Positions 11,128 through 62,094 of a stretch of DNA of 64,000 nucleotides are shown here, one piece after another. The stretch spans positions 9,651-73,650 of the IMG/VR virus record IMGVR_UViG_3300020036_009879; one strand, written 5' to 3'. Every line of letters begins with the position of its first letter. Position 1 is the stretch's first letter. This DNA is from a virus (taxonomy: Duplodnaviria; Caudoviricetes). The notes under the pieces are model-generated. The model saw only the letters and a program-made list of their open reading frames with translations, searched no databases and was not told the DNA's origin. Made by a program: the position numbers and the translations under genes.

Positions 11128-12393
11128 TTATACAAAACCTTGTTGTCTATGAACCCTTACTGCATTTCTGTTTACAGGTTCTATTGGTCTGTGACTATTA
11201 ACACCATATCTTAATGCTGCTAGTTCATCAGGTTCGTGTGGTAACTTATCGTTCTTGTCTCTACAGAAAGTTTGATAGCTGAAGTATAGTCCTGTTTCTT
11301 TGCTTCCTACTACGACTATTTTCTTATCTTGTACCCTTTTAATGTTTTGTTCTACATTTCCCTTCTGAGCTTTTCTTACACCGTTGTAACCTGCATCTCT
11401 TACTTCATCAATAAGTAGTGGCATTGCTGAATCGGCATAGATTTTAGCAAATTTTGGAATATTAGCATTTTTGAGTTTTTGAATCATCTCTTTCATTTTT
11501 AATTTAGATTGAGAAAAGATTTCTTGTACATAATAAGTTTTATCGTAGTAGGTAATTTTGATTAGTGATGTTTTATCACTACCTCCATAACCAAAGTCTA
11601 GTCCATACCACTCTTCTCCTTTTATATCTCCTAAGCCATCAATTCTATCCCATCCATCATAGATACGTCCTTGAGTTTCAAGTGTCCATTCTGCTAAGAT
11701 AACATTTTTGTAATAGGTTGGATTTTTCAGTTCTAAGTCTCTGTAACGTTTTACTACTGATTCATTCAGATTATCAATATTATCTAAATAAGTACTATGT
11801 AAGTATTCAGTATCTTCTAACCTGTCTAACATTGGAACACCTTCTACAAACCACTCTTTATGTATCCAAGAAGATACAGATGATGTTGGATTGTAAACAA
11901 GAATCACTTTCAAAGGTTTTCCTTTAATCCTGATTGACTCATCCACTTTTGAAAACTCCTCAAAACTCTCCACCTCTTCTGCCTCCTCTACAACTAATGT
12001 AGTGATTCCAGAAAGTGATTTCAATTTTGCTGTTTGTGTTCCTGATGAACGAATACCTTTAAAGCTAATAGTAGCTCCTGTAACTTTATTAACAATAACT
12101 CCATTTCTTTCTACAAAGTCATGTCCTAGTCTTAGTGTCTCTATTGCTGACCTAACATCAGATATAGTTGAGTCTTCAGATGATGACATAGTTTGTCTTA
12201 AGAAGAGTATTTTGTGTTTATATTTGGAGTATGTTTTTAGAACCATTCCTAATGCTACTCCAAATGACTTTCCACTTCCCCTTCCTCCATAGACTTGATA
12301 GTATCTCTTATCAGTTAAGTTATCTTGAAAAAATGGTTCAAAAGTAGGATTAATTACTAATTCTTCTACTTCTTCTATTTCATCTTCTTCCAT
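11128..12393 (-). CDS. terL: Terminase large subunit (PBSX/Terminase_3-like)
   Basis: Walker A YGGRGSGKS, Walker B LVVEEAEE, YNP, HSTYLDN, nuclease GLDFGYG, D-S-A and HEPD motifs. Confidence 0.92.
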   Translation of the reverse strand: MEEDEIEEVEELVINPTFEPFFQDNLTDKRYYQVYGGRGSGKSFGVALGMVLKTYSKYKHKILFLRQTMSSSEDSTISDVRSAIETLRLGHDFVERNGVIVNKVTGATISFKGIRSSGTQTAKLKSLSGITTLVVEEAEEVESFEEFSKVDESIRIKGKPLKVILVYNPTSSVSSWIHKEWFVEGVPMLDRLEDTEYLHSTYLDNIDNLNESVVKRYRDLELKNPTYYKNVILAEWTLETQGRIYDGWDRIDGLGDIKGEEWYGLDFGYGGSDKTSLIKITYYDKTYYVQEIFSQSKLKMKEMIQKLKNANIPKFAKIYADSAMPLLIDEVRDAGYNGVRKAQKGNVEQNIKRVQDKKIVVVGSKETGLYFSYQTFCRDKNDKLPHEPDELAALRYGVNSHRPIEPVNRNAVRVHRQQGFV

Positions 12394-14119: not shown

Positions 14120-14629
14120 TTAGTTCGATGCCCTAAATTCTTTTCCTCCAAAGGTTCTTATTCTTGGGGTTAAGTTATCAGGTTTTACTTCTTTGTCATT
14201 TGGGGTCTCAGATTCTAGAAACTCAAATACTTCTTTCATAAAGCTTTCTGCAATGGCTGCATGTTCATTTGAAACATTTGCTGTAACAGCTTTATCTGAA
14301 GCTTCTTTGTCGATGATGAAACCACTATCAGTAAATGTTCCAGGAAACATTCTTAATAATCGTGAGTAAGTAAAGTAACATAAAGCTGGAACTACTAACT
14401 CTCTTAAAGCTAAGTCAGCTTCAGAAGGAGCTGGGTCTCTATTAACGGGGTCTATACATCTGTCTACATTTGCCTTCCCTATCAGTCTTTTGAGGTCTAA
14501 TTGTTGAACAACTAGTTCTGCAGCTTGGATTTTAGATGGGTCAATATCAGGTTGAATAGAACAATAGTCAATTAAAGCTTGAGCTATATTAACTACTATT
14601 AGTTTCTGGGTATTGTTTGAGTTATACAT
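14120..14629 (-). CDS. Probable head-tail adaptor/head completion protein
   Basis: Directly downstream of portal; QQLDLKRLIG...LVVPALCYFTYSR pattern. Confidence 0.55.
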   Translation of the reverse strand: MYNSNNTQKLIVVNIAQALIDYCSIQPDIDPSKIQAAELVVQQLDLKRLIGKANVDRCIDPVNRDPAPSEADLALRELVVPALCYFTYSRLLRMFPGTFTDSGFIIDKEASDKAVTANVSNEHAAIAESFMKEVFEFLESETPNDKEVKPDNLTPRIRTFGGKEFRASN

Positions 14630-14632
14630 AGC

Positions 14633-16408
14633 TTATTTTTCTTTAATAGTTACTTCATTACCATTTTTTGAAACTACTTCCCACTTAGTATTAGTCTTAA
14701 ACAATACTTCTTTCTCATGTGACATACCTGAAATTTTAGAAATATCTTTTCCATTTTTATGTTCTTCAATTTTGAATACTACAGAACTGTCTGAAGGTCC
14801 TTGATTCTTAGAACTAAACTTGTTTGCTCTTGACTCGTCTTTTGTTGTTGAAGTAAAACCTTTAAAAGTTAATTCTTCTCCAGGTTTCATAGATTCCAAT
14901 TGACTAGTAGGCATATTCACTCCTCTATACAGTGTACCTTCTTTATCAGTAGGTAGTTTTGAAAGACTGTTATTTAGATTACTGATATACTTTTCATCAA
15001 CACTATTTGTAGTACCATCTCTGATTGCATAGTTCACATCAAAACCTCTTTCTGTAAAACTAATTATAGTCTTTTCTTCAGGAGTACTTCCCTTTTCAGT
15101 TGTATAGTTTTCATTTAAACTAGCTTCATTATAGTCACTTTGACTTACTGAGCTACTTTCTGATGAACCAGAACCAGGGTTTGGCCCACTTCCAGGACCA
15201 CCCATTACTAACTTACTAATTTTCTTAAGAAGTTTTTTCTTACCAGTTCCTTTAGAAACAGGTTTTACTGGAACTGGTTCTTCATCAAGTGTAAGTTTTT
15301 GTAATCTAATCTCTTTGACTGGAAAGACTGAACTTTTTAAAACCCTGTTAACACAACTCTCAATAGTATCTCTACCATTTTGAGTAATTGCATTAAAGAC
15401 AAAATAAGCTTCTTTTAAATCAGCTGAACTAAAACCAGTTTTTTGGTCTGCTCCTGCTAAGATAGGTGGGATAAGATAAGCTCCTGTGATTACTCTGTGA
15501 CATAGTTCGTAGCCTTTAGTACAACTTTCAACTACAGATGTGGAAGCTGATGCTCCACTACCTATTTCTTCAAGTACTGTATGTTCCATCTCTTCAGGGG
15601 ATAGTCCTGTCATTGTAATGATTTTTCCACTTCCTCTAGCTCCTTGGGCATCTTCAATAGATTTCTCTAGAGCTTCCAGGTTTGGGTCTTCTGCACTTAA
15701 CATAGTTTTTAGTACATAGGAATTGATAAAGCCAGTGGCAGTTTCTTTTCTCATTAAAATACTATTTTCTATATCAGCAAGTACAAAATTGATTGGGGCT
15801 TGTAATGTAGGGATAGGGTAACTACTCCCTCCAGCTTCTGAGTGATAGAGTACTTGTCCATTGTAGTTAGCTATTAATCCCTCTTTACTTTTTTTAATCT
15901 GTTCTAGTACGATGTCTGGATTGAATCTATCAATCCACTTTATCTTCCCTTTCGTAACTGTGTTTTTAACTGTTCTAGTGACCACTGCATTGTAGCCAAA
16001 ATCTGAATGGTATCCAAGTTTTGATGCTTTATTCAGTTCGTCAAATTCATTAAACCTTAAGTCAGTAATTCTAATTGGGTCTATTGTAGCCACTTCACCT
16101 TTTAAGTTATAGTTACTGTGAATACCTAAGGCATCAAAGTGAGCATAATCATCAGCTAGTATTGCTACCAATCCTTTTAGAGTCATTCCAGTAGAAGATA
16201 TGATAGTATCTTCACCTTCAAATTTTGACCCTTTATAAAACTTTATAGTTCTATTTACAGCTGATTTGGCTGCTGGTGATTGGTCAATTAGGTTTCTTAA
16301 AGTTTGTGGGAAGCTATTATTAGTCCCCCACTTCATTATTCCTAATGCCGTATCTTGTTTAGTTTCTACTTGTGTAACTTCTCTGTGGTCTTGTAGTTTG
16401 AATCCCAT
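14633..16408 (-). CDS. Portal protein with C-terminal ADP-ribosyltransferase domain
   Basis: N-term KWGTNNSFPQ...DQSP portal-like pattern; GGPGSGPNPGSG linker; ART motifs TLYRG, GFTSTT, HEKEVLF. Confidence 0.75.
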   Translation of the reverse strand: MGFKLQDHREVTQVETKQDTALGIMKWGTNNSFPQTLRNLIDQSPAAKSAVNRTIKFYKGSKFEGEDTIISSTGMTLKGLVAILADDYAHFDALGIHSNYNLKGEVATIDPIRITDLRFNEFDELNKASKLGYHSDFGYNAVVTRTVKNTVTKGKIKWIDRFNPDIVLEQIKKSKEGLIANYNGQVLYHSEAGGSSYPIPTLQAPINFVLADIENSILMRKETATGFINSYVLKTMLSAEDPNLEALEKSIEDAQGARGSGKIITMTGLSPEEMEHTVLEEIGSGASASTSVVESCTKGYELCHRVITGAYLIPPILAGADQKTGFSSADLKEAYFVFNAITQNGRDTIESCVNRVLKSSVFPVKEIRLQKLTLDEEPVPVKPVSKGTGKKKLLKKISKLVMGGPGSGPNPGSGSSESSSVSQSDYNEASLNENYTTEKGSTPEEKTIISFTERGFDVNYAIRDGTTNSVDEKYISNLNNSLSKLPTDKEGTLYRGVNMPTSQLESMKPGEELTFKGFTSTTKDESRANKFSSKNQGPSDSSVVFKIEEHKNGKDISKISGMSHEKEVLFKTNTKWEVVSKNGNEVTIKEK

Positions 16409-16629
16409 AGTGTTTTAAAAATTTAAACTGGGAATTCCAGTTGGTTAATACTTTGCTCTGAGTGAGTGATTGAACCTCTACTGTCTAGAATTAAATTCTT
16501 CCAGGACTCAGTAAGTTTTGAACAATATAAGACTAACTTGTAAAAGTTGACTTGTTCCTGTTCAGAAATTATTCATAACTTAGTTTGAAGATAAGAGGTG
16601 AAAAAAGAAATTTAAAAACCCCGTTTTCT

Positions 16630-16654
16630 TCATATAGTATGGAGCGTGAATTTT
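16630..16654 (-). promoter_or_regulatory. Candidate phage-RNAP promoter AAAATTCACGCTCCATACTATATGA
   Basis: Four copies (16630, 17026, 61678, 62070); CTATAT-GAAG end resembles SP6 CACTATA-GAAG; points at portal gene. Confidence 0.5.
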
Positions 16655-61658: not shown

Positions 61659-62094
61659 TTTAAAAACCCCGTTTTCTTCATATAGTATGGAGCGTGAATT
61701 TTCAGTTTCTAACTTCTTTAAAATCAAGGATTTAGATTTCAGGGTTTGAATTGGATTTCAGGCCCGGTTTTACTCTATGAATTAGAGAGTTTTTATATCA
61801 CGTACGTACACGTAAGATATATTTTAATATATACTTCGTATATGGGGTCAAAGCAAGATAAAAGCAAGATAAAAAACCTCTAAGTCAGGAGAGAGAGTTA
61901 AAAGATATATTAAAAACAGTATTAAAAACTATATACTGTAGAAAAAATCTCTGAACTTTCTCTCCTAACACAGGAAATTCCTGGTCAGTATGAGAGTAGT
62001 CAAAATCTTTACTTTAAAAGGGGTGAAAGAGAAAACAAAAAACCCAAAAAATCAAAAACCGTTGATTCTTCATATAGTATGGAGCGTGAATTTT
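61659..62094. repeat. ~440-bp direct repeat copy B, with candidate phage-RNAP promoters at 61678-61702 and 62070-62094
   Basis: Matches 16611..17050. Confidence 0.95.

Follow-up and report, generated by a model that had tools for sequence, protein, structure and literature searches.

The gene considered here lies on the minus strand at positions 14633..16408 of the window, which is the whole stretch of 64,000 nucleotides analysed, bases 9651-73650 of the 73,650 bp record of an uncultured marine virus (IMG/VR record IMGVR_UViG_3300020036_009879; CheckV completeness 91%). It is a single unbroken open reading frame (ORF) of 591 aa with an ATG start, in which a phage portal protein is followed by a complete ADP-ribosyltransferase (ART) domain. 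That portal and ART are fused is confirmed. At a probability of roughly 0.6, the sole portal of this phage would carry the ART as a C-terminal cargo that is packaged in the head, cut free and injected, with ADP-ribosylation of host proteins early in infection. The strings given in the original prediction, KGTGKKKLLKK, MGGPGSGPNPGSGSSESSS, TLYRG, GFTSTT and HEKEVLF, are all found in the ORF, and searches of the genome itself found one portal gene and one ART in the record, both of them here.

The portal half is recognised by profile and by fold. In the profile search, PHROG 11226 'portal protein' matches residues 1-375 (E 2.6e-112), and identity to the portals annotated in phages of Cellulophaga (phiST, phi13:1 and phi19:2) and in Tenacibaculum phage Larrie, all of the genus Cbastvirus, is 60-63% over this half; 'structural protein' is the annotation given to its homologues in phi13:1, in phi19:2 and in one record of phiST (KC821604.1). 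The AlphaFold2 (AF2) model of residues 1-400 is of moderate confidence, with a predicted local distance difference test score (pLDDT) of 61. The identity of the N-terminal part as a portal, on which the original prediction depended, was borne out by structure search, in which all 31 of the matches listed by Foldseek against the PDB are portal or head-to-tail neck structures, with 332-432 aligned columns and template modelling (TM) scores of 0.4-0.5; these include HFTV1 (8qsy, E 2e-5), a gene transfer agent (GTA, 6te8), HK97 (8fql), lambda and G20c. The length first given for this part, some 400 aa, was too generous: the portal homology ends at about residue 375 and is followed by a linker, residues ~376-422, which is probably disordered (pLDDT <50 over 380-400 and 402-417 in both AF2 models). 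The last long helix of the portal (328-358) is taken to be the crown helix facing the capsid interior. In solved portals, the C-terminal crown helices point to the interior of the capsid. The gene is single-copy in the packaging module, with that of the terminase large subunit (TerL) 2.2 kb downstream on the same strand.

The remainder of the protein had been described as a complete R-S-ExE ART behind a Gly-rich linker, and this description stands. Pfam PF03496 (ADPrib_exo_Tox) matches residues 437-579 with a score of 39.9 bits (cut-off 23.4), and PF01129 scores 26.3 against 22.3. The AF2 model of residues 402-591 shows the ART fold, N-terminal helices with a split beta-sandwich, at a pLDDT of 86.8 and a predicted TM score of 0.80, with the first ~20 residues disordered, and its best Foldseek matches are Vis (4xzk, E 1.6e-12), Tre1 (6dre), C3bot, ExoS/T, VIP2 and HopU1; sequence matches in the PDB are again the Vis toxin (E 9e-9) and Tre1. 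Residues 403-587, comprising linker and ART, match PHROG 595 'head maturation protease' at positions 340-505 of its profile (length 513), and the profile of PHROG 832 'RNA polymerase ADP-ribosylase' is matched weakly (E 1.5e-5). R495, S520, E565 and E567 are all present and are invariant across 14 aligned relatives, and they line up with the corresponding residues of Vis and Tre1. Judged by its residue set, the ART is catalytically complete.

The closest solved structures, Vis of Vibrio splendidus (4xzj/4xzk) and Tre1 of Serratia proteamaculans (6dre), have the same R / S-T-S / E-x-E set but are secreted or delivered by a type VI secretion system (T6SS), with other delivery domains. The ExE motif and these structures suggest arginine as the acceptor. 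Vis and Tre1 both modify arginine, the target of Tre1 being FtsZ. The identity of the phage domain to Vis and Tre1 is only 23-25% and its target is therefore not inferable from them; RNA polymerase or defence proteins, as named in the original prediction, are guesses.

The fusion recurs elsewhere. A search of 5.8 billion proteins found 259 portal relatives, most of them of 381-410 aa and without an extension, and some of 430-472 aa with a different, uncharacterised C-terminal extension. Besides that of the window, three full-length portal-ART proteins were found in this search (P0002, P0004 and P0005; 582-602 aa, 59-72% identity), with a further in-frame portal-ART, L009, in IMG/VR. Fusion in frame is therefore present in four other independent assemblies at 59-75% overall identity (P0002/L004, P0004/L006, P0005/L007 and L009), all of which retain the junction MGGPGSG and the catalytic residues, and it is in frame at five of the eight distinct ART-bearing loci. 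Comparison of the window with L004 gives a ratio of nonsynonymous to synonymous substitution rates (dN/dS) of 0.10 in the ART and 0.11 in the portal, and that of L005 with L009 gives 0.15 and 0.14, values that are qualitative only, with dS close to saturation; by these ratios both halves are shown to be under purifying selection.

Portals at 47 loci were compared by tblastn and in a tree, where the ART-bearing portals all fall inside one clade of nine rows (support 95/95). Eight of the nine have the ART, and L011 is a member of this clade without the cassette. Plain portals of 381-396 aa are the commonest form among the 47. Comparison of related portals for the presence or exchange of the C-terminal domain, which the original prediction had put forward as a check, indicates that the ART is accessory and has been swapped. 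The portal of the window is 89% identical to that of L005, where the ARTs are 44% identical, and L004 and L009 have portals that are 95% identical and ARTs that are 45% identical; in L005 and L009, ARTs that are 78% identical are carried on portals that are 70% identical. That sister portals carry ART types only 44-45% identical shows, at the level of these alignments, exchange of the cassette between portal backbones at the junction. It would also appear that the ART module can be lost without harm to the portal. None of the cultured relatives found, which are Cellulophaga and Tenacibaculum phages, carries an ART, and a metagenome scan with the ART alignment, made for split versus fused forms, gave one distant match only.

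A separate C-terminal extension of ~60-80 aa is present on 17 of the 47 Cbastvirus-type portals, for example L002 (the Larrie portal, 454 aa), L021, L024 and L037, and also in the proteins P0056, P0091, P0065, P0049 and P0075. It has the motif G[KR]Q.Q.LQR..RK[FY]NKG....QA..L..FG.....[IV].WL and no Pfam match.

In three members of the compared set the ART is not joined to the portal in one frame. In L003 there is an in-frame TAA in the linker, 20 codons past MGGPGSG; the ART reads on beyond it without a change of frame and without an ATG. In L005, which has the portal closest to that of the window, there is an A7 run where L007 has A9 in the same context, which places the ART in the +1 frame. 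The ARTs cut off in this way in L003 and L005 retain all of the catalytic residues. In L054, the portal is plain (388 aa), and a 248-aa gene behind the gene of a 169-aa virion protein consists of a 38-residue leader, a IIMGGPGSGPNPG junction and an ART. Runs of A at the junction are A9 in L006 and L007 and A7 in L004, with AAGAAAAAA (A6 only) in the window; such runs are expected by default from a Lys patch in a genome of 32% G+C. Programmed frameshifting in L005, or readthrough in L003, was considered and set aside, there being one example of each, in single-run assemblies, where recoding is inseparable from mutation or sequencing error.

The linker is made up of a stretch of Pro and Val, a patch of basic residues (K390-K392...K395-K396; coding sequence AAGAAAAAA, 15233-15241), the short amphipathic LLKKISKLV and a part rich in Gly, Ser and Pro. 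GGPGSG is invariant in seven aligned ART cassettes of the phage clade, and the junction follows a pattern of ~10 amphipathic residues (LLKKISKLV, RLTNLV, EKLKNVCNII) and then M-GGPGSG-[PR]-x-P. In the alignments and the identity matrix, it is at the GGPGSG junction that the histories of portal and ART part. A six-frame search of the genome for further GGPGSG-like motifs returned only the portal-ART copy and the P-loop of TerL, and no mention of GGPGSG in phages was found in the literature searched. In a scan of viral contigs for the MGGPGSG pattern, about half of the matches were unrelated adenylate-kinase-type P-loops (GGPGSGKS), so raw counts are unusable as evidence for a tag.

The methionine of the junction, Met402, had been placed correctly, at 15203-15205. 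Its proposed use as an internal start fared less well and is unsupported by the start-context matrix, in which it scores 2.7, against a median of 10.5 and a lower quartile of 8.1 for true starts, and stands at the 63rd percentile of in-frame internal ATGs; the matrix was built from 63 genes of the same genome and models Bacteroidetes-type initiation poorly. Met402 is best read, from comparison with its homologues, as the inherited start of a module that once stood alone, many free-standing relatives having MGGRSGQ or MGGPGSG as their first residues. A more tentative idea, possible though not one that we favour, is that the amphipathic stretch and GGPGSG-[PR]-x-P make up a portable head-cargo tag, which would serve as protease or loading site and as recombination joint, with the Lys/poly-A tract upstream as a slippage switch. 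Slippage on this tract, A7-A9 in relatives, could toggle the portal-ART fusion, or it could fix the proportion of plain and ART-bearing subunits within the dodecamer at a sub-stoichiometric value. If the tag idea is true, the same short site would free or load cargo and would let head proteins swap cargo alleles.

With residues 396-591 as the query, an exhaustive HMMER search recovered 1416 ART relatives at E <= 1e-3, many of them free-standing proteins of 166-212 aa with the N-termini just described. The nearest ARTs outside the clade ride on the MuF head proteins P0121 and P0122, at 35-40% identity (35% for P0122). ARTs are also found on an unrelated portal family, PF06381 (Phage_portal_3), in the metagenomic proteins P0141, P0156 and P0136, the last with two ARTs. 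These have the same order of portal, linker and then one or two ARTs, but differ in portal family, in a longer linker and in the tag [WF]xE..H[PK]R..G.F in place of GGPGSG. Because MuF proteins and PF06381 portals carry similar ARTs, tethering of this ART type to head proteins is recurrent. Among the 151 best ART relatives, a GGPGSG-type tag precedes the ART in 15 and the different tag [WF]xE..H[PK]R..G.F in another 15, a set which includes the three PF06381 portal fusions (Pfam-confirmed).

Several other arrangements were seen among the ART relatives. The tag [WF]xE..H[PK]R..G.F precedes ARTs on longer proteins (P0136, P0141, P0156, P0232, P0242, P0258 and others), and P0212 has four copies of L.LGGPGSGNFGHAGRP at apparent domain boundaries. 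Three of the best ART relatives, P0123 (1636 aa), P0129 (1564 aa) and P0131 (801 aa), have 3-5 tandem ART domains (PF03496/PF01129). In the short metagenomic contigs L052, L056 and L057, a free-standing ART of the MGGRSGQ type is directly behind PHROG 940 'nuclease', and in L056 it is also before a ParB-like gene. Five unrelated IMG/VR contigs (L062, L132, L072, L075 and L150) each have 2-5 small basic ORFs of ~60-90 aa that start MGGPGSGRKKGS, apparently a multi-copy family with the tag at the extreme N-terminus.

On the mechanism proposed, each of the 12 portal subunits would take one ART into the prohead, with no separate packaging signal needed, since the C-terminal crown of the portal points into the capsid. 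A ClpP-type head-maturation protease would cut in or near the junction, the freed 20-kDa ART would exit with the DNA, and in the first minutes it would ADP-ribosylate at least one host protein, so as to take over the host or counter its defences, as T4 Alt does and as MuF-ART proteins are predicted to do. The ART is a mobile, polymorphic cassette, swapped between portals within one clade of marine Cbastvirus-like phages. A candidate for the protease is encoded by the same phage, in a 606-aa virion protein with PF18823 InPase at 18-154, a PF00574 ClpP-type head-maturation protease at 206-341 and a tail of ~260 aa; by its domains this is a second enzyme on a head-assembly protein of this phage, with a protease that could free the cargo. 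We infer that the ART lies inside the head, is cut at the junction and leaves with the DNA, and that it modifies host proteins on arginine. An ART that is interior and cleaved or co-ejected, as in the original prediction, agrees with the C-terminal position of the domain, with the ClpP-type protease and with published predictions (PMC9503650, PMC5512222).

Several points weigh against this mechanism. Tethering to the portal is common but not obligatory, because the ART of L054 is free-standing two genes downstream and those of L003 and L005 are severed by a stop or a frameshift. The inward-pointing C-terminus is drawn from general knowledge of portals, the portal model being moderate (pLDDT 61, TM 0.4-0.5). 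A folded 20-kDa domain would have to unfold for the portal channel, and twelve would crowd the crown. GGPGSG is found nowhere else in the genome, so that no match is possible to a cleavage site in capsid or scaffold proteins. Packaging, cleavage and activity of portal-ART proteins in general are matters of prediction.

The ART might instead act in the producing cell and not be injected, being made late, with the portal, and modifying host or phage proteins at head assembly, fused or freed alike, with the virion copy incidental; a possible role would be to blunt defences that sense portal or terminase. We think this unlikely, although the gene does lie among those for packaging, with the phage RNA polymerase on one side and the terminase on the other, the same alternative is raised in PMC9503650, and the broken and free-standing forms show that attachment to the portal is unnecessary. 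Profile search of the record for an antidote or immunity gene found neither ARH (PF03747) nor Macro (PF01661), which would be acceptable if the cell is doomed. Similar ARTs are found repeatedly on capsid-interior proteins, namely MuF and portals of two families unrelated to each other, which would be puzzling if it did not matter that they are in the head, and action in the producing cell would leave the conserved tag and linker without a role.

The fusion might also be neutral, the ART being a selfish mobile element that is normally free, from a start at Met402, or the fused form being the product of recent loss of a stop codon. This is rather improbable. Met402 is conserved and is the very point at which free-standing relatives begin, there is a free-standing version in the same clade (L054), and plain portals predominate among the 47 loci, with L011 lacking the cassette, all of which would fit a neutral fusion; five independent lineages nevertheless hold the frame open across a freely diverging linker, the context of Met402 as a start is poor (2.7 against 10.5), and a portal-ART fusion arose independently in PF06381 portals. 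The stop of L003 and the poly-A frameshift of L005, both at the junction, might raise the suspicion that adjacent portal and ART genes were merged in assembly or sequencing by a missed stop or an indel. For the window this is scarcely credible, its junction having no long homopolymer (A6 only), and the recurrence of the same in-frame junction in four other assemblies, from different samples and with different nucleotide sequences, excludes an artefact in this record. It is the packaged and injected portal cargo that we prefer to these alternatives.

Effector domains on portal proteins have already been noted by Iyer et al. in 2017 (PMC5512222) and 2022 (PMC9503650), the earlier survey describing fusions of PBECR, 2H and InPase to MuF or portal proteins. 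The architecture found here is therefore of a known, computationally predicted kind: a conflict enzyme is C-terminal on a head-assembly protein, in a terminase-portal module, and packaging and injection are predicted for it. InPase, here on the head protease, is among the domains of their polyvalent proteins. Those surveys are comparative genomics with emphasis on myoviruses and MuF, and do not describe the Cbastvirus-type portal, allele swapping at the junction or split forms; the protein here differs from their fusions in having a single effector domain and no MuF. What this gene adds is a compact example that lacks MuF, from a group of marine phages with relatives in culture, the swapping of alleles at a conserved junction, and the occurrence of fused, split and free variants.

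The MuF polymorphic toxins of temperate phages, 14% of which are ARTs, as in the MuF-ART of E. faecalis EFV, were described by Jamet et al. in 2017 (PMC5576092). They resemble the portal-ART in having a variable C-terminal toxin, often an ART, on a conserved protein of the head that is in contact with the portal, with polymorphism by recombination. The portal-ART likewise has a polymorphic C-terminal toxin domain (ARTs 44-45% identical) on a conserved head protein (portals 89-95% identical), and ART C-termini swapped at a junction behave as do those of polymorphic toxins. It differs in that the carrier is the portal, in 12 copies rather than 1-2, that the phage group, which includes lytic phages in culture and has a T7-like RNA polymerase, is probably not associated with prophages, and that no immunity gene was found among the two families searched for in the record. 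No MuF domain was found in the protein by Pfam, and PF04233 is absent from the genome record, PF06152 and MuF3/4 not having been searched.

T4 Alt is packaged, trimmed and injected, and is loaded via an N-terminal capsid-targeting sequence. As a head-borne, Arg-specific ART of the R-S-ExE type, which the head protease trims and which acts on host proteins when infection begins, it is a likeness of what is here predicted. It is, however, a separate 76-kDa protein rather than a covalent fusion to the portal, and the sequence similarity between the two is marginal.

The order of genes common to the window and its Cbastvirus relatives is T7-like RNA polymerase, portal, 169-aa virion protein and large terminase (Table 1). 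The gene of the 169-aa virion protein is the neighbour of the portal in all relatives (45 loci) and bounds the variable slot on its far side. A scan for σ70 promoters around the portal-ART gene gave 13 sites against 12.4 expected in shuffles, and one for terminator-like sites gave 5 against 1.8 expected. The sequence CTATATGAAGAAAAC, a candidate core of a phage-RNA-polymerase promoter, has exact copies at 16623-16637 (-) and 61671-61685 (-), one copy being 215 nt upstream of the portal ATG; two matches compare with 0.63 expected by chance, and at least two were present in 8 of 100 shuffles. Outside the window, at G000:C1:1-2297 (-) of the record (L051), a virion structural protein of ~190 aa (PHROG 19979) is present as three tandem paralogues, and an additional tail-fibre-like C-terminus is found on the first.

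Table 1. Positions, in window coordinates unless stated, of the portal-ART gene, its parts and the neighbouring genes
Feature	Position	Strand	Evidence
Portal-ART gene, whole	14633..16408	-	591 codons plus stop; sole portal gene of 73.65-kb record
Portal domain, residues 1-375, small HK97/GTA-like type	15284..16408	-	PHROG 11226, fold
Flexible linker, residues 376-422	15143..15283	-	Low pLDDT in both models
Junction tag M402-GGPGSGPNP	15176..15205	-	Alignments, identity matrix
ART domain, residues 423-591, R-S-ExE (C3/VIP2/Alt-like) clade	14636..15142	-	Pfam, AF2, Foldseek
Catalytic Arg495 in LYRG	14924..14926	-	Invariant in 14-sequence ART alignment
S520-T521-T522 (STS motif)	14843..14851	-	S520 invariant in 14-sequence ART alignment
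E565-K-E567, ExE of ARTT loop	14708..14716	-	Both Glu invariant in 14-sequence ART alignment
169-aa virion structural protein (DUF6712)	14120..14629	-	PHROG 21325 (E 8.5e-41), Pfam PF20459
Terminase large subunit, packaging module	11128..12393	-	PHROG 2 and 3717
606-aa virion protein, InPase and ClpP-type protease	G000:C1:3423-5243 (L051:3423-5243), just outside window, upstream of window coordinate 1	-	Pfam

For the annotation of metagenomic phages, these forms are a warning that an oversized portal is a genuine fusion, and that a short ART ORF that follows a portal is possibly a split form of one. ARTs packaged in the head are thought to be a first-strike weapon of phages, and experimental knowledge of them is almost wholly that of T4 Alt. 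An ART borne on the portal would have a fixed address, at the crown, a maximum of 12 copies and a natural allelic series on near-identical portals, which would make it a clean system. The questions that it opens are how a folded enzyme is loaded into, released from and threaded out of the capsid, which proteins the ART alleles target in marine Flavobacteriia, and whether the junction may be a protease or loading signal.

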